Shown: positions 1,617 to 14,303 of the stretch, piece by piece
How positions within the stretch are numbered: the first letter of the stretch is position 1
How the letters are laid out: the number at the start of each line of letters is the position of its first letter
The notes under the pieces: model-generated
What the model was told of the DNA's origin: nothing
The model's database searches: none
Seen by the model: only the letters and a program-made list of their open reading frames with translations
Made by a program: the position numbers and the translations under genes
Assembly: GCF_014280195.1 (NCBI RefSeq)
Contig: NZ_CP047960.1
Location: forward strand, 540,001 to 572,000
DNA from: Synechococcus sp. A15-24
GTDB lineage: Bacteria; Cyanobacteriota; Cyanobacteriia; PCC-6307; Cyanobiaceae
Reading direction: 5' to 3'
DNA length: 32,000 nt

Positions 1617-3221
1617 TTAGGGGAGCGTTTTTTGAATCTCCACACTGGTGGGTAGGGGGATTTCGATGCCATTGGCGGCGAAGCAATCAAGGATCCCCTT
1701 GTTCACGCGTGCAAGAGCACTGAAGAATCCACCGACATCGGTGTAGGTCGACTCCATCAAGACCATGAAATCCAGGCTGTAATCCGAGATGGCGGAAAGG
1801 CGGCAAACACTCAGGGTCAGGTTGGGATCGTTGTTGATGATGTCGGCCAGAAGATCGGGGATGCGATCCACCATCTCCAGAGGTGTGTCTCGAGCAACTC
1901 TGATCGATTGCTTGAGGTTTTTCACAACGGCAATGATTAGCTTGATATCTCCAAGAATGGATTGTCGGACGCTTAAGTAGTCCTCCCAACTGGAAATGCG
2001 CACTTCGGCCAGCACTGTCAGGCTGAGCGCGCCACTCGGGCTTTCGTCGTAGTGGGCGCAATGACTTGTGAGCGATTGAATCCCCGCCAGGTAATCGCAG
2101 CTACGTTGGGTGATGGCATTCAGCTGGCCAATGCCAAGGCCTAAGGGAAGTGATAGAACAAATTCGATGGTTTGGAGAGGATGCTGCAGCCCGCCCCTCT
2201 TCTGCAAGGTCTGGCGTGTGAAATTAACGATCGTCGTGTCATCCACCTTGTTATTGGGAATGGTGACATTTGCTGAAAGGGTGGAGAGCTCGATTGAGCG
2301 CAGCCCGATCCGTTTGACGAAGCCAAGCTTGTCGCCAACCTGGCAGAACTCTCCAACACGAATGGGGCGATCGGACTGGATGGAGATGCCGGCAAAGATG
2401 TTGCCAAGCAACTTGGATGCTCCCAAGCCAATCGCCAAGCCTGGTACGGCTGAAAAGGCCAGAACGGTATTGCTTGGCATTCCAAGTCGCAGCAAAAGTT
2501 GGTAGATGATCAGGACTGCTGTCAGCGCGCCGAGGAAGCGACATATCGGTAGAAGAACGTTTTGGATGCGTTTGCGCTCCAGGTCTGATTTGCTGCGTTT
2601 GAAACTCAGGATCCAGTGAGAACTGGTGCGGCCCAGGGCCTCGAACAGCAGGATGATGGATCCGCCGAACGCGACATAGGCCAGCATGTCGAAACAGAAG
2701 TCGATATTGCGAAGCCACCATCCGGTGATGTTGATTTTGTTATCGATCAACCGAAGTGTGAAAACCGAGAGAGGTGCGATGGGCGCAATCAGAAAAAAGC
2801 GTCTCCAGGCAGTATTTTCGACTTTCCAGAACCGAACTTTCCGATCGGAGGTGAAGTCTTTGACGTAGCGGAATGTGTTCAGGAATGTGTAAATCAGAAG
2901 CCCCACAATGGGCAGGTAAATTCCAATAAAAATCAGTGTTAGTGTGATTTGGAGGAGGCTCTGTTCACCTATCGGTAATTCTAGAAATGAGCGAATGTCC
3001 TTGGGCAGCAGGAGATAGGCCTTGGGTGGAACCAGGTATCCAGGGGTGTAGGTGTAGGTGGAATACCCATGGCGTGGCGTAGGAGTTGCTCTCACTGGCA
3101 GTTCCCGTTTCGCGGATACTGGCGACGTATTGGTAGCCCTTGTCGACATTGTCGAGGGTTCGTTTCGTGAACTGGTAATAGGGAATATCAGCTCCTTCTT
3201 GAAGTTTCGAAGCCAGGGCAA
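1617..3221 (-). CDS. MscS-family mechanosensitive ion channel (multi-TM N-terminal part; true 5' end uncertain)
   Basis: The MscS core signature is 'LGNIFAGISIQSDRPIRVGEFCQVGDKLGFVKRIGLRSIELSTLSANVTIPNNKV', covering the pore helix and the beta-domain (PN motif). About five TM helices precede it. The longest ORF overlaps the upstream ORF by 257 nt in another frame (see findings). Confidence 0.85.
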   Translation of the reverse strand: MPWLRNFKKELIFPITSSRNEPSTMSTRATNTSPVSAKRELPVRATPTPRHGYSTYTYTPGYLVPPKAYLLLPKDIRSFLELPIGEQSLLQITLTLIFIGIYLPIVGLLIYTFLNTFRYVKDFTSDRKVRFWKVENTAWRRFFLIAPIAPLSVFTLRLIDNKINITGWWLRNIDFCFDMLAYVAFGGSIILLFEALGRTSSHWILSFKRSKSDLERKRIQNVLLPICRFLGALTAVLIIYQLLLRLGMPSNTVLAFSAVPGLAIGLGASKLLGNIFAGISIQSDRPIRVGEFCQVGDKLGFVKRIGLRSIELSTLSANVTIPNNKVDDTTIVNFTRQTLQKRGGLQHPLQTIEFVLSLPLGLGIGQLNAITQRSCDYLAGIQSLTSHCAHYDESPSGALSLTVLAEVRISSWEDYLSVRQSILGDIKLIIAVVKNLKQSIRVARDTPLEMVDRIPDLLADIINNDPNLTLSVCRLSAISDYSLDFMVLMESTYTDVGGFFSALARVNKGILDCFAANGIEIPLPTSVEIQKTLP

Positions 3222-3856: not shown

Positions 3857-4585
3857 TTAGCCCCGCCTCTCCCGGTGCATCCAGCTGATCCAGTCCGCTG
3901 AGATCTCCTGAGGGCATGCGGCTTCACATTCGAGGTGGCTGCTGCAGCTTCCGAATCCTTCCGTCACCATTTGGTCTTGCATGGCTTTTGCCCTGGATGC
4001 CCGTTCCGGTTGGCCCTGGGGGAGTTGCCCCAGGTGCGCCAATTTGGCGGCCACGAACAGGCTGGCGGACGCATTCCTGCAGCTGGCCACACAGGCTCCG
4101 CAGCCGATGCAGGTGGCTGTGCTGAAGGCGCTGGTGGCCTGGTCGCGTCCCACCGGCAGGGCATTGCCATCCGGCGCCTGGCCGGTGCCGGTGGAGCAGT
4201 AGCCACCGGCCGCGATCAGTCGGTCCAAGGCAGAGCGGTCCACCATTAGATCCTGAATCGCAGGGAAGGCCTTGGCCCGCCATGGCTCAAGCGTGAGTTC
4301 CGCGCCGTCCTCGAATTCCCGGAGATAGAGCTGACACACCGACGTGGCAATACGGGGGCCGTGGGCCTGGCCGTTCACGAGGAAGCCGCAACTGCCGCAG
4401 ATGCCCTCCCGGCAATCGTGCTCAAAGCTCACCGGTCGTTCCCCGGCGCTGATCAGCTGCTCGTTCAGTTGATCGAGGGCCTCCAGCAGCGACACATCCG
4501 GCGAAACATCGGCAAGTCCATGACGCTCGTACCGGCCGGGTTGGTCTGCGGCGGGCTGGCGCCAGATGCGCAGGGTGATCTTCAT
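3857..4585 (-). CDS. sdhB: Succinate dehydrogenase/fumarate reductase iron-sulfur subunit
   Basis: Three Fe-S cluster motifs are present: '[10 protein letters not shown]' (2Fe-2S), '[11 protein letters not shown]' (4Fe-4S) and '[12 protein letters not shown]' (3Fe-4S). The ATG at 4585 overlaps the sdhA TGA (ATGA). Confidence 0.92.
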
Positions 4586-6498
4586 CGGTAGCTGCGGGTG
4601 CTCGGTTGCAGGGCGGTGAACTGCAACGTTTCGCTGTGGCGGATCGGCTCCGCACCATCCTGGTGTTCCCAGGCAGCGATGTGGGCGAAGTTGACGTCAT
4701 CGCGCCGTGCTTCACCCTCCGGGCTCTGGTGCTCCTCACGGAAGTGGGCACCGCAGGACTCCTCCCGCGCCAGGGCATCGCGCAGCATCAGCTGTGCCAA
4801 CCCGAAGAAATCACTCACCCGCAGCGCTTTCTCCAGTTCCGCGTTGGGCCCTGCCGCTTCTCCCGGCACCCGCACTTCACCGTGGAAGCGCTTCTCCAAA
4901 GCCTCCACCTGGCTGAGTCCGTCCCGGAGACCTTCGGCATCGCGGCTGATGCCGCAGCTATCGATCATCACGGCCCCGAGTTCCCGGTGGAAGCTGTCCA
5001 CAGGAGTTGTGCCTCCACTGCCCAGCATCGTCTCGATCCGACGGAGGGTGCTCTCCAGGGCTTCTCGGCAGGCCGAATGATCAGGCGTGACGTCCGGGGC
5101 TGCGTTGCCCGCCAGCCAGGCTGTCACCGTGGACGGGGCAATGAAATACCCGTCGGCCAATCCCTGCATCAACGCACTAGCCCCCAGGCGGTTGGCGCCG
5201 TGTTCGGAGTAGTTCGCCTCCCCGAGCACGAACAACCCCGGGATCGAGCTCATCAACTGATAGTCCACCCACAGGCCGCCCATCGTGTAGTGGGGGGCGG
5301 GGTAAATCCGCATCGGTTTGCGGTAGGGATCGTCGCCGCTGATCCGCTCGTACATCTTCATCAAGTTGCCGTAGCGGGCGGCGATAGCCTCGCGGCCTTC
5401 CGTCTTGATCGCATCGGTGAGATCCAGAAACACCGAGAGGCCACCGGGCCCGACGCCCCGCCCTGCATTGCACAGCTCCCGCGCCCGGCGGGAGGCCACA
5501 TCCCGTGGCGCCATGTTGCCGTAGCTGGGATACAGCCGCTCCAGGAAATAGTCGCGCTCCTGTTCCGGGATGTCCTCGGCGGATCGCTGGTCGCCCGTTT
5601 CGAGCGGCAGCCAAATGCGGCCGTCGTTGCGCAGGCTTTCGCTCATCAGCGTGAGCTTGCTCTGGAAGGCATCACCGCTGGGAATGCAGGTGGGGTGGAT
5701 CTGGGTGAAGCAGGGGTTGGCGAACAGGGCGCCCTTGCGGTGGGCCCGCCAGATGGCGCTGGCGTTGGATTTCAGCGCATTTGTTGAGAGGAAGTAGACG
5801 TTGCTGTAGCCCCCGGTGCAGAGCAGCACCGTGCGGGCGGTGTGAATTTCCAACGCACCGCTGAGCAGATGGCGGGCTACCACGCCCCGCGCAACACCAT
5901 CAACGGTGATTAGCTCGAGCACATCACGGCGGGTGAGCAGTCGGACCCGGCCAAGCTCCACCTGACGCATCAATGCCTGGTAGGCGCCATAGAGCAACTG
6001 CTGACCGGTCTGACCGCGGGCGTAGAAGGTACGGCTCACCAGGGCGCCGCCGAAACTACGGGTGGCCAGGCTGCCGCCGTATTCTCGGGCGAAGGGCACG
6101 CCCTGGGCCACGCATTGATCAATGATGCCGCTGCTGATTTCCGCCAGCCGCTGGCAGCCGCTTTCACGGGCGCGGAAATCACCTCCCTTGAGCGTGTCGG
6201 TGAACAGGCGGCTGACGCTGTCGCCGTCCACGGCGACCGATCGCGCCGCATTGATGCCGCCCTGGGCCGCCACCGAATGGGCCCGCCGCGGGCTGTCGTG
6301 GAAGCTCAGCACCGTCACCCGGTAGCCCTGCTGGGCCAGGGTGGCGGCGGCAGAGGCACCCGCCAGGCCGGTGCCCACCACCAGCACATCGATCTGGCCT
6401 TTGCGCAGGGGGCTGATCAGGGGCAGTCCCTCCTTGGTGCGCTGCCAGGCATCGGCGATCGGTCCGGCAGGAATGCGCGGGTCGGGCAGGCCGCTCAT
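4582..6498 (-). CDS. sdhA: Succinate dehydrogenase/fumarate reductase flavoprotein subunit
   Basis: '[15 protein letters not shown]' is an FAD Rossmann motif, and '[14 protein letters not shown]' is the covalent-FAD histidine motif. I placed the start at ATG 6498, not the ORF-track 6699. That ATG forms an ATGA overlap with the sdhC stop, and the 67 upstream codons are Arg/Pro-rich and lie inside sdhC. Confidence 0.93.
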
Positions 6499-7187
6499 GC
6501 GACACCTCCCAGGGCCAGCAGCACACTGATCGTCAGGAAACCGCCGCCGACCAGGGCGGCGAGAACGCCTGCTACTGCGCGCAGGGCGCTGCTGTTGGCA
6601 GGTGTCAGCCAGCCCAGGCTGCGGTGGGCAGCTTCGGCTCCGTGCAGCAGATGCAGGGCCAGGGCCACTGCCGCAGCGACATAGAGGAAAGCGTTCCACG
6701 GCTGCTGCAGCACCTGGATCAACGTGGCGGCTTCCTCGCCAGCTGCGGGGCGGGGCCAGCGCAGCTGGCGCAGGTGCATCACAAGAAATCCCAGGGTCAC
6801 CATTCCGGCCACCACCGTGCTGCGGCTGGCCAGGGCTGCCAGAGGGGATTGGCGACGACTTCTGAGGGTCGCGGTGTTGCCGGCTCTGCGGTTGGCCATG
6901 GCCTTGGCCAGGGTGAGGCTGATGTGAACGATGGCCAGCAGCAGCAGGCCGCTCTCAACCACAGGCAGCCATGTGCTGCTGTGCAGGGCAGTGGCGTAGG
7001 CCTCGAACTGCTCAGGGGCCAGCACCGCTGGAAGCAGGCCAATCAGATGCACCAGCACAAATAGCACCAGCAGCAATCCGCTGAAGGCGGCACCCGTGCG
7101 GACAAGGGATGCAGGGACCTTGGCTATAGGGATGGTGACCAAAGCAGGCTCGGCACGTCCGTGATTGGGTCCATGCTCCCTGATCAC
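6495..7187 (-). CDS. sdhC: Succinate dehydrogenase/fumarate reductase membrane anchor, single large di-haem cytochrome b (b558 / Bacillus type-B like)
   Basis: There are about five TM helices. His residues in consecutive helices (ORF positions 47, 88, 138, 179/182) are spaced about 41-50 aa apart, as expected for four haem ligands. The gene sits directly upstream of sdhA with an ATGA overlap. The start is uncertain: ATG 7187, or TTG 7142. Confidence 0.72.
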
Positions 7188-8307
7188 GGCAACCGTTGTG
7201 ATTCCTCAACGGCGTTGTCATGGTGGGTTGAGAGCAGAGTCGCCGCAGCTCGTGCCCGTTGTGCCACATCGCCATCGCTGGTGGATTGCCCTGGTTGCCG
7301 CTGCATTTGCCCTCACGCTGGCCTTGGGGTTGGGGCGGCCGTCGCAGGCGCCGCCCCCACTAGCAGAACGTTCGGATGCTCATGCGGCGATTGACTGGGG
7401 CACGGTGAAGGCTGCGCCGACTGCTCCAGCTGAGCCGCTGCTGCAGATGGGTGCCTACATCACCAACATCAGCGACATCGACCTGATGGATGACCAGTTC
7501 TCCATTGAACTGCTGCTTTGGACCATTTGGCATGGAGAAACGGATCAGAACCCCAGTGATCAATTGCGCGTCCTCAACGGCATCTACAACGGAGATATTC
7601 AGCGCTTTGAGCGGATCCGCCGGGATCAGACTGATGGTCATAGTTGGAGCCTTTACAAGGTGCGTTCACCGGTGGTAAAGCGCTGGCGCCTGCAGCGTTA
7701 TCCCTTCGACGATCAGCTGCTGCACGTTCAGATCGGTCTGGATGATCCTCTGCAGCCGGTGAACCTGGACGTGGTGCCCACGCAGCCCTGCAGCGTGACC
7801 CCCAGCCTGCTGCTGCCGGGTTGGACCCTGAAAGATCCGACGGGTTACGCCTCCAGCATCAGCCTGATGAATGATCTGGGCCGTCCTCCCGCCGCCGGCG
7901 TCGCCGTGCGCCGGCAACCCACCGTGTCGTTTGACCTGCCGATCCAGCGGCGCAGCCTGCTGTTCGTCGCGCCCGATTTCCTCGGCTATTTGTTGGCTGT
8001 CGGCCTTTGCTGCATGAGTCTGCTGATCACCCGCAGCCGGGATGATCTGATCCTCGCGGCGGTGGTGTCCGCCGGCGGTAACTACGTGTTCATTGCCGGC
8101 AATCTTCCGGTGACGGCGATGACGGGCTTCATCGGAAATCTGCAATTGATCATTTTCCTGGGGATTCTTTACGTCGTCGGTGCTGATGAATTGATCGACA
8201 ATCAGCTCAGTCTGATCAGTACAAGGGTTGCCGAGGGGCTGCGGGTGCTGTTGCTGCCCAGTTATGTGGCGATGACCTTGCTGGGCATCTGGTGGATCAT
8301 TCCATGA
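7165..8307 (+). CDS. Prokaryotic pentameric ligand-gated ion channel (Cys-loop receptor superfamily) homologue
   Basis: A signal/anchor segment 'WWIALVAAAFALTLALG' is followed by a beta-rich ~175-aa ectodomain. It contains 'FSIELLLWTIW' and the hallmark 'YPFDDQLLHVQIGL' (compare FPFDxQ in the Cys-loop). 'IQRRSLLF' and four TM helices follow: M1 'FLGYLLAVGLCCMSLLI', M2 ending in 'GNLP', then M3 and M4, with a very short M3-M4 loop as in the bacterial members GLIC/ELIC. The likely true start is GTG 7252 or 7261, because ATG 7165 would overlap the sdhC 5' end. Confidence 0.75.
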   Translation: MGPCSLITATVVIPQRRCHGGLRAESPQLVPVVPHRHRWWIALVAAAFALTLALGLGRPSQAPPPLAERSDAHAAIDWGTVKAAPTAPAEPLLQMGAYITNISDIDLMDDQFSIELLLWTIWHGETDQNPSDQLRVLNGIYNGDIQRFERIRRDQTDGHSWSLYKVRSPVVKRWRLQRYPFDDQLLHVQIGLDDPLQPVNLDVVPTQPCSVTPSLLLPGWTLKDPTGYASSISLMNDLGRPPAAGVAVRRQPTVSFDLPIQRRSLLFVAPDFLGYLLAVGLCCMSLLITRSRDDLILAAVVSAGGNYVFIAGNLPVTAMTGFIGNLQLIIFLGILYVVGADELIDNQLSLISTRVAEGLRVLLLPSYVAMTLLGIWWIIP

Positions 8308-9374
8308 CACAACCAACAGCGCCCCACCCATCCGGCTACTGGACGTTGTTGACCTCCGGGCTCACCGTTGTGATTGCTTTGGTGGGCGTATTGTTGATTC
8401 AGCCGCGTCTGAGTGAACGTCGGCTCAAGATCGACGATCAATACATTCTGACAGCAACCGAAGTGCGGTCTCTGCCAGCGGGAACCCTCTCCGTGGTGTT
8501 GGATCGTTCGCCCGGCGAGGACCATAACGATTTCAAATATCGACTGCTGGAGCTCGTGCTCAAGCGCAGTGGTCGCCCCTTCGCCCTTGGGCTCAGTGAA
8601 GTGGTGGTCGCGCAGGATGAAGCCGTTGCGGCGTTGGAACAAGGCGTCGCCAGCTTCAGCCGCAATCCCTTTGCCTTGAGCATTGGGGTCTATGGCGCTG
8701 GCGTGGATGTGAACCGACGTCTGCTGCCAGTACCCATCCCCGTGACCGGAGGCATCCTCGGACTGCGCAGCGGTTGGACGCATCAGAGTCAGATGGCGCG
8801 ACTGGCCACGATCCGGACCAGGCAGGATCTCGGCGACATCGTTCTGCTCCAGGGACTGGGCTGGAGTGATGTAGACATTTTTGATGCGGCTGGCCTACGC
8901 ACCTTCACCGCACGCTCAGAAGATCTGTTTCGTCTGGTGGATCACCAACGGGTGCAGTTGTTCCCCAGGGGTATTGCGGAGTTGGAGCGGGAGGCGCAGC
9001 TGATGGCGTCATCCACATCGGACACCGCTTTGGATCCACATCTGCTGCTTGCCTATCCCTTCGCCGGCTTCTTTTACGTCAGCCCTGACAATCAACCGCT
9101 GGCGGATGCGATCAGAACGGGATTTGAACGGGCGATCGCTGATGGCTCCTATCAGCGATTGGTGGAGGAGCTGATTTTCACCCCCTGGTTGCGCCGCACG
9201 CTCGTGCTCAAGAATCGCCGAGTGATCGTTCTGGCCAATCCGGTGGCGGCTGATGTTCTTCCCGCTGTAGAGAGTCGCCATTGGATCGTGCCCTGGCCTG
9301 AGCTGTTGAACGAGGAGATCGAGACAGGAGAGCAGTTGTGCGCTGCGCAAAAGTTGAAGGCTCTTTGCTCTTGA
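8304..9374 (+). CDS. Membrane-anchored periplasmic solute-binding protein, family 3 (type II PBP) like
   Basis: ATG 8304 overlaps the channel TGA (ATGA). An N-terminal TM anchor 'YWTLLTSGLTVVIALVGVLLI' is followed by a pattern typical of SBP_bac_3-like proteins: 'PVPIPVTGGILGLRS', 'LQGLGWSDVDIF', 'FRLVDHQRVQLFPRGIAELERE', 'LLLAYPFAGFFYVSPDNQPLADAI..GFERAIADGSYQRLVEEL'. Confidence 0.72.
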   Translation: MTQPTAPHPSGYWTLLTSGLTVVIALVGVLLIQPRLSERRLKIDDQYILTATEVRSLPAGTLSVVLDRSPGEDHNDFKYRLLELVLKRSGRPFALGLSEVVVAQDEAVAALEQGVASFSRNPFALSIGVYGAGVDVNRRLLPVPIPVTGGILGLRSGWTHQSQMARLATIRTRQDLGDIVLLQGLGWSDVDIFDAAGLRTFTARSEDLFRLVDHQRVQLFPRGIAELEREAQLMASSTSDTALDPHLLLAYPFAGFFYVSPDNQPLADAIRTGFERAIADGSYQRLVEELIFTPWLRRTLVLKNRRVIVLANPVAADVLPAVESRHWIVPWPELLNEEIETGEQLCAAQKLKALCS

Positions 9375-9531
9375 GATGGATGTGAATCTGATTCCCATGA
9401 TTGATTTTATTTCAAAATTTTTGAATTTGGGGATCAGGCTCTTTTGCTTTTCTGGTCCTGCAAATCGTCGGGCCTTTAGGCGTCAAAGCAGGTGGGATTC
9501 ACTGGCAAATATTTTCTATGTTTATTTGAAG

Positions 9532-9553
9532 CAAGGGCAGATTGTTGCCCTTG
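9532..9553. terminator. 8-bp stem / 6-nt loop hairpin between the binding-protein gene and the 3' end of tRNA-Thr; possible bidirectional terminator
   Basis: CAAGGGCA (9532-9539) pairs perfectly with TGCCCTTG (9546-9553). The hairpin lies in an A/T-rich context, 10 nt from the tRNA 3' end. No long U-tract follows on either strand. Confidence 0.4.
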
Positions 9554-9562
9554 ATTGTTAAA

Positions 9563-9635
9563 AGCCGATGACCTGACTTGAACAGGCGACCCACGCTTTA
9601 CGAAAGCGTTGCTCTACCGGCTGAGCTACATCGGC
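9563..9635 (-). tRNA. trnT: tRNA-Thr (anticodon CGU)
   Basis: The reverse complement reads GCCGATG-TA-GCTC-AGCCGGTA-GAGC-A-ACGCT-TTCGTAA-AGCGT-GGGTC-GCCTG-TTCAAGT-CAGGT-CATCGGC-T. This gives a full cloverleaf with a 7-bp acceptor stem, a GTTCAAG T-loop and anticodon CGT. CCA is not encoded. Confidence 0.9.
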
Positions 9636-9654
9636 AACAATAGCAATTTAACAT

Positions 9655-9966
9655 TTGAGACTGTGCCTGGCCGCCGTTTTGGACGAGAACCCAACATCAC
9701 GGAAAGAATTGGCCCCGGCGTTGCGGGACCGTTTGATCCGTGAATCACGCACCCCCTGGCGTGGGCTCCGGCGTTTGGTCTGGTTCGCGTTGTTCGCCTC
9801 CGCCGGCCTGGGACTGTTCACCATGCTCTTCCGTGCTTCCGCTGGCGACAGCGTCGAGATCTCCGACTTCGGGATCCAGGGGGGTGCTCTCCTCCTCTTC
9901 AGCAGCCTGCTCTGGTTCGATCGCAGCCGTGATGTCGATGTCGATCAGGGCGGTGGCGACGGCTGA
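9655..9966 (+). CDS. DUF3493-like small two-TM protein (cyanobacteria/plastid-lineage family)
   Basis: 'LRDRLIRESRTPWRGLRRLVWFALFASAGLGLFTMLF' followed by a second TM 'GGALLLFSSLLWF' matches my recollection of the DUF3493 layout. Only a TTG start (9655) or downstream TTG starts are available, so the start is uncertain. Confidence 0.55.
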   Translation: MRLCLAAVLDENPTSRKELAPALRDRLIRESRTPWRGLRRLVWFALFASAGLGLFTMLFRASAGDSVEISDFGIQGGALLLFSSLLWFDRSRDVDVDQGGGDG

Positions 9967-10728
9967 GTCGTCCTCGCTGGTTGCTGCGTCGATGGACGCT
10001 GTGTCTTCCGGGACATCGGAGGTTGGCTCCTGATCCGGCCCGTTGGTTGGTTCCGGAGTGGGTTCCGGTTCGTTTGAAGGCTCCGGAGTAGAGACGGGGG
10101 GTGGTTCCGGAGTGGGCGAGGGGGTCGGTTCCACTGGCTCCGGCCAGGTCAAGGGGGCGAATTGCAGGAGCTGTAGGCCAAAGCTCGTGCGTTCCTGCCG
10201 CAGCTGATCAAGGCTCCACGGTTCAGCGGCGGAGTCGTTCTGTGGTGCTTGGACCAACAGGAGCACCGCCTGCACCAGTTGCTGGATCTGCCAGATCAGT
10301 AAGGCCAACAGTGGCGCCGTCAGCAGCAAGCTCACCAGTCGTGAGCTGCCCTGCAAAGGCGAGAATTCGTGGATCAGCCCTGCAGATTCATCCAGCCACC
10401 ACAGCAGCGGTAGCAGCAGAACAGTGCAACCCACCAGCGCTGAGCGGCTTCCCCATTGGCTCTCGGAGGCGCTGAGCCTCAACTGATCGCTGCTGCGGGA
10501 CGCCACGGGAAGGCGCAGCAGCAGCAGGGATCCCCAGTCCGCAGGACGTTGCCACAGCGCGATGGCAGGCGCCACAACGCCGACTCCCCAGATCAACAGA
10601 CGCTCCACGATCGGCACAGGGCCTGGATCCGCTCCTGCCAAAAGGAGGCGGATCAGCAGCAGTTCCAGGGGGATCACGCCGATGGCTAGGCACTGAAGCC
10701 AAAGCAGGGGTTCGCGGCGGGATTGCAC
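9745..10728 (-). CDS. Multi-TM membrane protein with a long acidic/Pro-rich low-complexity C-terminal tail
   Basis: The N-terminal ~170 aa contain about five TM helices ('LLWLQCLAIGVIPLELLLIRLLLAG', 'LLIWGVGVVAPAIALW', and others). They are followed by 'PEPVEPTPSPTPEPPPVSTPEPSNEPEPTPEPT...EEEES...'. The gene starts 14 nt downstream of the infB stop on the same strand. The layout resembles what I recall as the cyanobacterial 'low-complexity tail membrane protein' family. Confidence 0.6.
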   Translation of the reverse strand: MQSRREPLLWLQCLAIGVIPLELLLIRLLLAGADPGPVPIVERLLIWGVGVVAPAIALWQRPADWGSLLLLRLPVASRSSDQLRLSASESQWGSRSALVGCTVLLLPLLWWLDESAGLIHEFSPLQGSSRLVSLLLTAPLLALLIWQIQQLVQAVLLLVQAPQNDSAAEPWSLDQLRQERTSFGLQLLQFAPLTWPEPVEPTPSPTPEPPPVSTPEPSNEPEPTPEPTNGPDQEPTSDVPEDTASIDAATSEDDSAVATALIDIDITAAIEPEQAAEEEESTPLDPEVGDLDAVASGSTEEHGEQSQAGGGEQREPDQTPEPTPGGA

Positions 10729-10742
10729 GGCGGAACGGAGCC

Positions 10743-13700
10743 TCAGGTGGTGAGTTTGCGGCGCTGGGTGACCATCTTGAAGGCCTCAATCCGGTCGCCG
10801 TCTTCCCAGTTGGCAAAGCGATCGGTGCCGACACCACACTCGAAGCCGGTGGCCACCTCCTTGACGTCGTCCTTGTTGCGGCGCAACGAGTCGAGGTCGC
10901 CGTCGTACACCACCTGGGAGCCGCGATGGACACGCACCTTGCAGTTGCGTTGCAACTTGCCGGTGGTGACGTAGCAGCCCGCGACGGCGCTCTTGCCAAT
11001 GGTGAACACCGCCCGCACTTCGGCTTCGCCGAGGGCTTCCTCCACCAGTTCGGGCTCCAACAAGCCCTCCATCGCTAACTGGATGTCCTCCAGCAGCTTG
11101 TAGATCACGTCGTAATCGCGCACATCCACGCCGGTGGCATCTGCTGCCTTCTTGGCACCAGAGGCCATTGAGGTGTTGAAGCCCACGATCACGGCGCCGG
11201 AGGCGGCCGCCAGGTCGACGTCTGTTTCGGTGACCTCTCCCGGTGCCGATAGCAGCACACGAACCTGGACCTCGTCCTTGGGCAATTGCTCAAGGGAGCC
11301 AAGGATTGCTTCCACAGAGCCCTGGACATCAGCCTTGAGGATCAAGTTCAGCTCCTTCAGCTCGCCTTCATTGGCCTGACCTGACATCGCTGTGAGCGAC
11401 ACCCGGCGCGAGGCCATCTGCTGCGCTAAGCGTGTGGCGCGAGCATCCGACGCACGATCTCCCACAACAGCCCGTGCTGATTTCTCGTCGGGATACACCT
11501 CGAATTCGTCGCCAGCGGTCGGAACCTCGCTGAAACCGAGGGCCTCAACGGCAAACGAAGGACCAGCCTCTTTAAGACGTTGGCGGTTGTCGTCGACCAT
11601 GGCCCGAACCTTGCCGAGCACCGGCCCGGCCGCCACGACATCGCCGGTCTTGAGGGTGCCGTTCTGCACCAGCAGGGTGGCCACAGGACCCTTGGCCTTG
11701 TCGAGGTGAGCCTCGATCACAGTGCCGCGGGCCAGGCGATCCGGATTGGCCTGAAGGTCTTCCACTTCGGTGACCAGCAGCAGCATCTCCAGCAACTTGT
11801 CGATGTTCTCGCCCTTGATGGCACTCACTGGCACCATCACCACATCGCCGCCCCAGTCTTCCGCCAGCAGGTTCTGCTCGGACAGCTCCTGCTTCACCCG
11901 GTCGGGGGAGGCCCCTTCCTTATCAATCTTGTTAATTGCCACCACAATCGGCACCTCTGCAGCCCGGGCGTGGCTGATGGCTTCCAGCGTCTGGGGGCGA
12001 ACGCCGTCGTCAGCGGCAACCACCAGAACGGCCACGTCCGTCACCTTGGTGCCGCGGGCCCGCATGGCCGTGAAGGCTTCGTGGCCCGGGGTGTCGAGGA
12101 AGGTGAGCTTGCGGGCTTCGTCGTTGTGGTCGATCTCGACCTGATAAGCACCGATGTGCTGGGTGATGCCGCCGGCCTCGCCGGCAGCGACCCGCGCCTT
12201 GCGGATCGCATCGAGAAGGCTCGTTTTGCCGTGGTCGACGTGACCCATGACCGTGACCACGGGTGGACGACGGATGAGGTGTTCCTTGTCGGCTTCTTCG
12301 ATCATCTCGACGGTCTTCTTGGCCGCCTCCTCCACGTCGTCCTGGAGCACCGGAACGCCGAATTCATCGGCCACCGTCTCGATGGTGTTCATGTCCAGGG
12401 TCTGGGTGACCGTGGCAATGATTCCTTTGAAGAACAAGGATTTGATGATCTCGGAGCTCTCGACGCTGAGCATGTCGGCCAGCTCCTGCACCGTGAGGTT
12501 GTCCTCCGGAACGATCAGCATCTCCGGCCGCACCTGCTTGGCCTCGCGGGCAGCGCGCAGTTCCATCGCCCGACGCCGCTGGCGTTGACGCGTGGTTTCC
12601 TTCTTCCGCTTCCGCATCGCCGCCATCGGCTTGGGAGCGGCCTTTTTCTGCGACTTCGGCTTGGCGGGGCGAGCCAGGCTGGCGGACAGCACAATGGCTT
12701 GCTGTTCGCCGGCGAATCCTCCGGTTTCAGCGGTCAGAGCATCGTCGTTCTCGCCGATGATGTGGACCTTCTGGCGCTGCTTCTGTGGCGAACGGCTGCG
12801 CAGGGCTTCCAGCTTGGCGCTGTCATCCCAGTCCGGACGTCCAGGGCGGCGTTGGCCGCCGGGTGCACCGGGACGGAAACCACCGGGGCGACGCGGTGCG
12901 GTTGGGGCTGTAGGGCGTGCCACCGGTGGCGTGGCCGTTCCGGCACCGTCGCCAGTTTTGGTGGGGGCATCGGGCCGGCGGGGGGCCGGCGCCGTGGGGC
13001 GTCCAACGGGCTTCTGCAGTTGCATGAGCTCGCCCGGTGCCACGGGTTTGCGCATGCCGCTTGGCATGCCAGGGCGTTGCGGGCTGCCGGCACCGGGGCG
13101 TGTCGGTGGGGCCGGACGACCGCCGATTCCGGTGGAACTGCCGTCCCGGCGGATCGGCTTGCCCACCAGCTCCAGGGTGTTGCCGCCGCTGCGGGTCGGC
13201 GCGCCAGGTCGTGTTGGACGCCCAGGACTTCCGGGACGCTGCGGGACACCGGTTCCAGGGCGTTGCGGTGCACCAGCTCCGCTGCGGGTGGGTGCTCCGG
13301 TGCCGGGACGCCGCGGAACAGGCTTGCCCACCAGCTCAGGACGAGGTGTGGGGCGCGTGGGTGGCCCCGCTTTGACAGGTGCACCTGGACGCGCTGGTGC
13401 TGGAGCCCCTGGACGGGTTGGAGCACCGGGGCGAGGTTCTGATCCAGGGCGGGAAACGATCTGTGGCTTCTGTCCTGCGCCTGGCGTTGGGCGGCTGGGG
13501 ACAGCTGCAGGCCGTGGTTTGGGTTGATCGGCCGCGGGACGCGCGGGTGCCGGACGGGCCGGGGCCGGTCGTGCCGGGGCTGGTTTGGCGGCAGCGGGTT
13601 TGGCTGGTGCGGGCTTAGCGGCAGCTGGTTTGGCTGGCGCGGGTTTTGCAACCGTTGGCTTAGCAACCGTTGGCTTGACGACTGAGGGGCGAGCCGGTGG

Positions 13701-14303
13701 AGTCGTTGGTTTCGACGGCGCAGAAGCCGCGGCGGGCGTGGCCGGCTTCGGCTTGCTGACGACCTCAGGCTTGGCCGGCTGAGGACGCGGTGGCGGAGCA
13801 GCGGCAGGTCTCGGCACTGGTTTGGCCGGTACTGCTGGGGCCGCTGCCTTCGCTGGTGCTGGACGGGCCGGCGCCGCTGGAGCTGCAGGCTTCGCTGGGG
13901 CTGCAGGCTTAGACGCTGATGCTGCAGGCTTCGCTGGGGCTGCAGGCTTAGACGCTGATGCTGCAGGCTTCGCTGGGGCTGCAGGCTTAGACGCTGATGC
14001 TGCAGGCTTGGCTGGTGCTGCGGGTTTCGCCTGAGCCGGTGCTGGTTTGGCGGGAGCCGCTTTCTTGACTGACAGGATCGCCTTGCCAGGAGCTGGTTTG
14101 GCCGGTGCAGGTGCAGACGCTTTGCTGGCGTTGCCTTTCGACTTCAGCAGGCTGCGGATCTGTCCGGCTTCGGCGTCACTGATGGAGCTGCTGTGGCTCT
14201 TGGCTGCGATCGACAGCTTCTCGGCCGCATCCAGCACGTCCTTGTTCTCAAGGCCCAGGTCCTTGGACAGCTCGTAAATTCTGACTTTGCCGCTGCTGGT
14301 CAT
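10743..14303 (-). CDS. infB: Translation initiation factor IF-2 with a ~600-aa Pro/Ala/Lys-rich N-terminal extension
   Basis: The N-terminal domain is '[30 protein letters not shown]'. The G-domain has '[12 protein letters not shown]', 'DTPGHEAF' and 'NKID', and the C-terminal domains are conserved through to '[10 protein letters not shown]'. Confidence 0.97.
13882..14009. repeat. Perfect 39-bp tandem repeat, 3.3 copies, in frame inside infB
   Basis: The unit 'gctgcaggcttcgctggggctgcaggcttagacgctgat' occurs at 13882-13920, 13921-13959 and 13960-13998 without a mismatch, plus an 11-nt partial fourth copy. It encodes ([13 protein letters not shown])x3 on the minus strand. Confidence 0.95.

Follow-up and report, generated by a model that had tools for sequence, protein, structure and literature searches.

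The two genes and their parts

Two adjacent genes on the forward strand are the subject of this analysis of a 32,000-nucleotide stretch of the genome of Synechococcus sp. A15-24 (contig NZ_CP047960.1, positions 540,001 to 572,000), hereafter called the window, in whose numbering all coordinates are given. The first gene is predicted to code for a highly divergent subunit of a pentameric ligand-gated ion channel (pLGIC), and the second for a membrane-anchored protein with the fold of the type-II periplasmic binding proteins (PBP). The stop codon of the former overlaps the start codon of the latter, and the two products may well work together as a periplasmic sensor and a channel. The features of the pair are the following, with the open reading frames (ORFs), AlphaFold2 (AF2) models and alignments on which they are based:

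7252-8307, forward strand: divergent pLGIC subunit gene (ORF, orthologue N-termini, profile matches to the Gloeobacter channel GLIC, AF2 model and Foldseek)
7267-7332, forward strand: N-terminal hydrophobic segment, residues 35-56 of the 380-residue ORF, preceded by RHR (AF2 helix)
7438-7950, forward strand: predicted beta-sandwich extracellular (periplasmic) domain, residues 92-262 (AF2 strands with a predicted local distance difference test score, pLDDT, of about 80-92; alignment to the GLIC ectodomain)
7699-7713, forward strand: YPFDD Pro-loop, i.e. the beta6-beta7 loop equivalent to the Cys-loop, without cysteines (alignment to RYPFDSQTLH of GLIC)
7972-8298, forward strand: predicted four-helix transmembrane domain (AF2 helices; alignment to M1-M3 of GLIC)
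7972-8028, 8038-8097, 8110-8217 and 8221-8298, forward strand: helices M1, M2, M3 and M4, residues 270-288, 292-311, 316-351 and 353-378 (AF2 helices)
8304-8307, forward strand: ATGA in which the channel stop (TGA, 8305-8307) overlaps the start of the second gene (ATG, 8304-8306)
8304-9374, forward strand: gene of a membrane-anchored protein of predicted type-II PBP fold, 356 amino acids (ORF, AF2 model and Foldseek)
8340-8399, forward strand: single N-terminal transmembrane helix, residues 13-32 (hydrophobic 19-mer in homologues)
8481-9182, forward strand: predicted two-lobed binding-protein fold, residues 60-293 approximately (AF2 secondary structure; alignment with class-F solute-binding proteins)
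9183-9371, forward strand: C-terminal extension of about 60 residues past the canonical fold (invariant columns; span of the Foldseek alignments)

An earlier interpretation of this locus from its letters and ORFs, here called the sequence-only reading, had placed the channel gene at 7165-8307. This is indeed the longest ORF (forward strand, 380 amino acids, TTG start), while its first codon is merely the most upstream one available. Close orthologues start with MPVVPHRHRWW, which corresponds to a GTG at 7252 in the window, and the TTG at 7165 runs into the divergent sdhC gene (6495-7187, reverse strand). For these two reasons GTG 7252, which gives a channel of 351 amino acids, is likely the true start. 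Each of the two proteins has more than 150 conserved homologues, so both ORFs are more than chance, and the shared ATGA that the sequence-only reading described is present.

The channel gene

The layout of a pLGIC subunit that had been recognised in the ORF is present, i.e. a signal or anchor segment, a beta-rich domain with the Pro-loop motif (YPFDDQLLHVQIGL, residues 179-192), an RR pair just before M1, four helices and a minimal M3-M4 loop, the latter being nearly absent in the AF2 model. The N-terminal hydrophobic segment would be a signal peptide or a signal anchor and would put the beta-domain outside the cytoplasm; a proteobacterial homologue of the channel, described below, has a classic signal peptide (MKTCVIFNLFLFLFLNFNNLYA/SP). 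SRDD opens M2, the motif NLP lies in the M2-M3 loop, and ADELID follows M3, SRDD and ADELID being conserved acidic motifs on the cytoplasmic side.

Identification of this protein as a channel relies on family profiles and on its predicted fold. Pfam gave no match at E ≤ 1, including PF02931 (Neur_chan_LBD) and PF02932 (Neur_chan_memb), and the NCBIfam model LGIC_1 scored 17.3 bits against a cutoff of 500. The sequence-only reading had proposed Pfam searches with PF02931, PF02932 and PF00497 and had taken the lack of a significant pLGIC hit as grounds for dropping the assignment. Neither protein matches any of them, and by that standard the pLGIC call would fail; the profile and fold evidence alone rescue it. 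The missed match reflects the sensitivity of the curated models, because relatives reached by the family profile do match them. A search of 1.84 billion representative proteins with this profile recovered 1156 relatives at E ≤ 1e-3, of which 325 at E ≤ 1e-10, and distant members match Neur_chan_LBD or Neur_chan_memb, some below and some above threshold (for example 37.7 bits to Neur_chan_memb for the relative P0387).

Searches against the PDB lead to the same family. With the single sequence, GLIC chains account for all 60 matches listed of 64, at weak E-values of about 0.07 to 0.9. With a profile of 24 orthologues, the 60 listed matches are again exclusively GLIC chains, the best at E 3.5e-4, and the alignment extends from the Pro-loop through M3. 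A wider profile, composed of the window protein and 26 relatives drawn from the family-profile search, matches GLIC from residue 9 to residue 311 of 317 (E 2.7e-28). The AF2 monomer bears out the beta-sandwich plus four-helix fold that had been expected: its best Foldseek matches are GLIC and chimeras thereof, at E 1.6e-15 and probability 1.0 over about 320 columns, the confidence of the model being moderate in the transmembrane part (pLDDT about 50-66). Moreover, Y179, P180, F181, D182, the pre-M1 R262 and P315 of the M2-M3 loop are invariant in the family, and they align with their GLIC equivalents. In the wider family the Pro and Asp of the Pro-loop, like the Arg ahead of M1 and the Pro between M2 and M3, are invariant or nearly so. 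Since profile searches, structure model and signature residues agree, we regard the predicted product as a true though very divergent pLGIC, with some 15% identity to GLIC, and presumably a homopentamer.

On the GLIC alignment, the pore register reads R/H(-2'), S(-1'), R(0'), D(1') and D(2'), followed by A6', V9', G13', V16' and G20'. Cation selectivity had been suggested from the two Asp residues; this is rejected, as Arg/His, Ser and Arg stand before them and the charges of the pore mouth are mixed. Because the inner mouth has both basic and acidic rings, ion selectivity is not readable from the sequence. SRDD and a further motif, NPSD, are common to the clade of the window channel and the proteobacterial homologue and are absent from the wider family. 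Among the other relatives, a 473-residue protein (P0345) shows an unusual architecture in which a Pfam Ion_trans segment, i.e. transmembrane helices of the voltage-gated-channel type (residues 14-119), precedes the pLGIC core.

The binding-protein gene

The second protein likewise has no match in Pfam, including PF00497 (SBP_bac_3), or in NCBIfam, and nothing significant was found in PDB searches with the single sequence or with a profile. Its AF2 model (pLDDT 81, predicted template modelling score 0.76) has two alpha/beta lobes preceded by an N-terminal helix. Among the 50 PDB matches shown by Foldseek, 49 are class-F type-II solute-binding proteins (SBPs) or proteins derived from them (E 1e-10 to 1e-8), and the remaining one is an SBP of a tripartite ATP-independent periplasmic (TRAP) transporter. 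They include AncCDT-1, the two substrate-binding domains SBD1/2 of GlnPQ, ArgBP, GlnBP, the ligand-binding core of GluR0, MltF and cyclohexadienyl dehydratase. The solved SBPs, of 220-240 amino acids, cover about 250-260 columns of the 356-residue model, leaving the C-terminal extension outside the canonical fold.

The model thus supports a type-II PBP fold of the class-F (polar-amino-acid) kind with a transmembrane anchor. The family-3 SBP assignment of the sequence-only reading stands as far as the fold class and the N-terminal transmembrane helix are concerned, and finds no backing at the level of sequence. When the binding-protein family was aligned by hhalign, in local or forced-global mode, with GlnH, HisJ and ArgT of Escherichia coli, either nothing or only the last helix aligned (30 C-terminal columns, probability 1.2%, with DGSYQxL facing DGTYxxI). 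As the profile alignment failed and the ligand-contact residues, among them the alpha-carboxylate Arg and the alpha-ammonium Asp typical of amino-acid binders, could not be mapped, we propose no ligand, and nothing in the analysis supports the amino acid or amine that had been suggested.

The anchor is a constant feature of the family, a hydrophobic N-terminal 19-mer being found in 26/26 homologues examined, the proteobacterial one included. There is no lipobox or clear cleavage site at the N-terminus, and the helix is conserved. In the picocyanobacterial proteins it is followed by a conserved juxtamembrane QPRLxERR, with P34, R39 and R40 invariant and R35 conserved in at least 90%. Within the same alignment, W327, P330, W331 and the pair Cys346/Cys355 of the tail are invariant, as are many motifs of the cleft region.

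Since the top structural matches include cyclohexadienyl dehydratase and AncCDT-1, a reconstruction of its binding ancestor, an alternative is that the flytrap is an enzyme of this type, evolved from amino-acid binders, that makes or removes the channel ligand in the periplasm. These matches score no better than ordinary binding proteins, however (all at E of about 1e-10 to 1e-9), the protein has no sequence-level similarity to the dehydratase or to AncCDT-1, and no genes of the aromatic amino-acid pathway lie nearby in the 32-kb window. We consider an enzymatic role barely plausible.

Conservation of the pair

A scan of species-representative genomes gave 25 loci, all from marine Synechococcus, Parasynechococcus or Cyanobium, except for one contig binned as Salipiger that we take to be mis-binned. 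In all picocyanobacterial loci that have downstream sequence (24/24), the channel gene is immediately followed by the binding-protein gene. Without exception in the related loci, the stop and start codons overlap as ATGA, GTGA or TGATG or are separated by no more than 14 nt. This conserved stop-start coupling suggests that the two proteins are co-translated in matched amounts. The pair is retained where the neighbouring succinate dehydrogenase (sdh) operon has been lost, and in Synechococcus sp. UW140 it is found between a methyltransferase gene and genes for a LOG-family protein and a glycosyltransferase. It therefore occupies at least two genomic contexts in picocyanobacteria.

The pair is also found outside this group. 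A contig of 29% GC carries a homologue of the channel (P0250, 31% identity) joined by ATGA to a homologue of the binding protein, which has 359 amino acids, a transmembrane anchor and 23% identity to the window protein (E 2e-27). Judging from its genes, this contig is proteobacterial, because thrS-infC-rpmI-rplT-pheS-pheT occur in the order of E. coli and its L20 and ThrS are 74% and 52% identical to those of E. coli. Since both families occur there joined by ATGA, their association extends across phyla. That the genes would be neighbours across picocyanobacteria and in another phylum, which the sequence-only reading had made a test of its proposal, is thus what the 24 loci and this contig show. 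A homologue search started from the proteobacterial binding protein returned only itself, and a second AT-rich channel relative (P0257) lies on a 1.3-kb contig that ends before any downstream sequence. The binding-protein family was found only beside this channel clade.

The lack of an adjacent ABC transporter (ATP-binding cassette) permease or ATPase gene had also been pointed out. No such gene is present anywhere in the 32-kb window, and no ABC transporter genes were found among the called genes of the proteobacterial contig or the flanking ORFs scanned in UW140. These results support a pair orphaned from any ABC transporter, with a distant partner being possible.

Do the two products work together?

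We assign a probability of roughly 0.6 to a functional partnership in which the two proteins form a two-subunit periplasmic sensor-channel. Physical contact between them, pentamer formation, a periplasmic orientation of the flytrap and ligand-dependent gating are elements of this partnership that we infer, and any particular detail of gating is held with much less confidence than the partnership itself.

Several points weigh against it. Neither protein passes a curated family model, and the physical interaction and co-expression of the two are presumptive. The channel fold does not need a partner, and three more distant pLGIC relatives that were checked (about 20% identity) have no binding-protein neighbour; a partner general to this branch of pLGICs is accordingly rejected, and the partner is specific to the clade of the window channel. 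Most picocyanobacterial loci lie in one syntenic region (sdhBAC / pair / tRNA / DUF3493 / infB), so that much of the adjacency within the group is inherited and not independent. In one single-cell genome (Synechococcus AG-683-C23, locus L017), the binding-protein gene (7007-8070) is disrupted, being split over two frames with a stop codon within the transmembrane segment, which could be an error of sequencing or else the sole case of one partner decaying. The relation of the binding protein to canonical SBPs is seen at the level of the modelled fold only, and its cleft may be degenerate and non-binding. Finally, the Lys and Arg residues that flank its transmembrane helix number 0-2 on the N-terminal side in most orthologues and 3-5 on the C-terminal side, and a naive positive-inside rule would put the flytrap domain in the cytoplasm.

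The shared synteny leaves room for two proteins that are co-transcribed and functionally independent, the binding protein feeding a transporter or a sensor kinase encoded elsewhere and the channel working alone. Orphan SBP genes that serve distant transporters exist, much of the picocyanobacterial adjacency could be inherited, and other pLGIC relatives lack such a neighbour. Inheritance of synteny as the only cause of the adjacency is nevertheless rejected, given the separate context in which the pair remains joined in UW140 and the proteobacterial contig, where both families are joined by ATGA at 23-31% identity in an entirely different neighbourhood. Moreover, the binding-protein family has been found beside no other channel clade, and a conserved transmembrane tether is unusual for the SBP of an ABC importer in a Gram-negative cell. 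Independence of the two products is improbable.

The charge bias around the anchor bears on topology. The sequence-only reading had placed the binding domain in the periplasm, and the distribution of Lys and Arg is not clearly in favour of this. In a reversed arrangement (N-out, C-in), the flytrap-fold domain would be cytoplasmic and would act on the cytoplasmic face of the channel or elsewhere, with no extracellular sensor. The bias towards the C-terminal flank, which in most orthologues comes through the invariant QPRLxERR, would fit this arrangement, as would the acidic SRDD and ADELID motifs of the channel, and the type-II PBP fold is also known from the cytoplasm, for instance in the effector domains of LysR regulators. 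On the other hand, the two flanks carry about the same net charge when acidic residues and the N-terminal amine are counted, several orthologues have 3-5 Lys or Arg on the N-terminal side, the best structural matches are all periplasmic or extracellular, and the channel offers almost no cytoplasmic surface. The Cys pair of the tail, invariant in picocyanobacterial homologues, suggests a disulfide formed in an oxidising compartment; together with the periplasmic structural relatives, it favours a flytrap on the outside (C-out). The reversed topology is quite improbable.

Even with a periplasmic flytrap, the second protein could be a non-sensing accessory, i.e. a factor for assembly, stability or localisation whose cleft no longer binds, the channel being gated by a ligand, pH or ion of its own. 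Its sequence is related to canonical SBPs very weakly, no more than the last helix being alignable, and inspection by eye revealed no conserved Arg/Asp pair resembling that of amino-acid binders. The prokaryotic pLGICs with solved structures gate on their own (GLIC by protons, according to its PDB entries; DeCLIC is described as calcium-sensitive), and in MltF the same fold serves as a non-transport module. The two-lobe fold is however confidently predicted, many motifs of the cleft region are invariant, and the flytrap architecture is normally kept for ligand binding; the conserved gene coupling fits an accessory and a sensor alike. An accessory role is unlikely, though it deserves more weight than independence or a reversed topology.

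Proposed mechanism and comparison with known systems

The sensor-channel partnership would work as follows. The two genes would form one operon-encoded module, in which the first supplies a pLGIC subunit with a periplasm-facing beta-sandwich and a four-helix pore domain, and the second would be translated in step with it through the overlapping stop and start codons. The product of the second gene would be a Venus-flytrap domain (type-II PBP, class-F-like) held at the membrane by its single N-terminal helix. Tethered beside the periplasmic domain of the channel, the flytrap may capture a small solute; once closed and liganded, it may act on the outer domain of the channel and alter its gating, or else the ligand may be handed to the channel. 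The outcome would reach the cell as a flux of ions or a shift in its membrane potential. The logic of such a module would be that of a split version of the PBP-pLGIC fusions of other bacteria.

A bolder version of this mechanism makes the flytrap the obligate agonist-binding subunit of a 5:5 hetero-complex: channels of the SRDD clade would have lost the gating by small molecules at their own interfaces and would be opened by the docked, liganded and closed flytrap. We advance it tentatively and hold it to be doubtful. If true, it would describe a pLGIC gated by a protein-ligand complex, and a split-gene bacterial counterpart of the use that glutamate receptors make of flytraps.

The pairing of a pLGIC with a stand-alone PBP-II as a kind is already known, as a 20-year-old genome-based prediction. 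In a computational work, Tasneem, Iyer, Jakobsson and Aravind (2005; Genome Biol 6:R4) found pLGIC ('ART-LGIC') genes of some bacteria in conserved neighbourhoods with stand-alone PBP-II genes, and suggested that the two cooperate in the sensing of small solutes. The sequence-only reading cited this work correctly on pLGICs and periplasmic binding domains and overstated the novelty of the arrangement, since such operons and the same cooperation are described there. The window pair has the same architecture and the same proposed logic, its genes being co-directional and in a conserved neighbourhood, while the 2005 study named no mechanism beyond cooperation. Its alignment has a 'Synechococcus sp.' entry, which may or may not belong to the window family. 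What is new here is a pair of families invisible to Pfam, the conserved transmembrane tether, the conserved stop-start overlap and the proteobacterial occurrence. Jaiteh et al. (2016) list Synechococcus pLGICs and do not discuss their neighbours. Full-text literature searches turned up no experimental work on a pLGIC whose binding-protein partner is a separate polypeptide.

GLIC of Gloeobacter violaceus (PDB 3EAM, 4HFB) belongs to the same superfamily and has the same fold as the window channel, without Cys-loop cysteines and with a very short M3-M4 loop. They share the RYPFDxQxLH Pro-loop, the pre-M1 Arg and the NLP of the M2-M3 loop. GLIC is named a proton-gated channel in PDB entries and has no partner gene described; the window channel differs from it by its low identity, by the pore mouth S R D D (-1' to 2'), by the Gly at 13' and 20' and by the clade-specific motifs NPSD and NGIYDGDIQRF.

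Also comparable to the module are pLGICs that carry an extra periplasmic sensory or modulatory domain on the pLGIC core, such as the alpha-proteobacterial PBP-I fusions and DeCLIC. In these the domain is part of the same polypeptide and of another fold class (PBP-I, or the beta-lobes of DeCLIC), whereas in the window pair it is a separate, transmembrane-anchored polypeptide of type-II class-F fold. In DeCLIC, the sole pLGIC with an accessory domain of solved structure, the fused N-terminal domain modulates gating. One of the channel relatives recovered here (P0296) is itself a fusion of an N-terminal PBP of the Bmp/PnrA type to a pLGIC.

Ionotropic glutamate receptors, including the cyanobacterial GluR0, use a class-F-like flytrap as ligand sensor of an ion channel, and the GluR0 ligand-binding core (Nostoc) is among the structural matches of the window binding protein. 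Their pore is a tetramer of the P-loop type, with domains not homologous to those of pLGICs, and the flytrap is inserted in the same chain; the likeness would thus be one of working logic only. With the class-F SBPs of ABC transporters (GlnH, HisJ, ArgT and the SBDs of GlnPQ), the window protein shares the two-lobe type-II fold and a C-terminal helix with the motif DG(S/T)Y. Unlike them, it lacks a match to SBP_bac_3 and ABC genes nearby, has a transmembrane anchor in place of a cleaved signal peptide and carries the 60-residue C-terminal extension, and the canonical ligand-contact residues are unrecognisable in it.

Genomic surroundings

Upstream of the pair, one conserved element stands out in the intergenic region between sdhC and the channel gene:

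7215-7227, forward strand: TTGTCATGGTGGG motif, some 25-37 nt before GTG 7252 (upstream regions aligned with MAFFT)

This motif, or variants of it such as TTGCCACCGTGGG, is found about 25-40 nt upstream of the channel start in eight loci (L001, L009, L010, L011, L013, L016, L021 and L025), and the orthologues that bear it are only about 60-75% identical in protein. In the window it holds a tiny out-of-frame ORF (ATG-GTG-GGT-TGA). A promoter element, an upstream ORF or a regulator site are candidate roles. A simple promoter scan found no sigma-70-like promoter upstream of the channel, and the two terminator-like matches obtained are no more than chance would give. Neither the upstream region of the pair in the window nor those of 20 orthologous loci had an NtcA-type site (GTAN8TAC). 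The Rfam scan detected no riboswitch or other RNA upstream of the pair, its only match being a tRNA-Thr downstream.

Divergent to the channel gene lies an sdhB-sdhA-sdhC operon (succinate dehydrogenase / fumarate reductase-like; window 3857-7187). It is gone in several picocyanobacterial loci (L002-L006 and L010) that keep the channel pair and the flanking gltX-like gene, and in L017 sdhB alone remains. About 4 kb upstream of the pair, a gene for an MscS-family mechanosensitive channel (1617-3221, reverse strand), syntenic in L001, L003 and L025, shows no evident link to the pair.

Shortly after the binding-protein gene comes an AT-rich spacer, in contrast to the 62% GC of the window, and then the tRNA-Thr (CGT) gene (9563-9635, reverse strand; region 9375-9654). 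The distance from the binding-protein gene to the gene of a DUF3493 protein ranges from about 0.17 kb to 3.4 kb across orthologous loci (e.g. L001, L014 and L015), and because of this variation the spacer looks like an insertion hot spot. The DUF3493 (Lpa1/Rep27-like) ORF (9655-9966, forward strand) overlaps by about 220 nt a proline-rich ORF of 327 amino acids on the opposite strand (9745-10728), and both match other loci by tblastn. Only the N-terminal 195 residues or so of the 327-residue ORF are conserved in most loci, i.e. all except L023 and L025, so its 3' part is probably a chance extension in GC-rich DNA. Further on, infB (translation initiation factor IF-2; 10743-14303, reverse strand) codes for a very long N-terminal region rich in Pro, Ala and Lys, with near-perfect tandem copies of a 13-residue unit.

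Implications

The present pair bears on the physiological role of bacterial pLGICs and on that of the extra periplasmic domains which many of them have. It offers a clean, naturally split test case made of two small genes with strict co-inheritance and stop-start coupling, and it is present in abundant marine Synechococcus as well as in a proteobacterium. Pfam recognises neither family and the members are labelled 'hypothetical', and for this reason domain-based surveys of pLGICs miss them. If the binding protein gates the channel, the pair would show how a Venus-flytrap sensor can be coupled to a pore of the Cys-loop type, and it would point to a fast electrical response of ocean picocyanobacteria to a dissolved solute.

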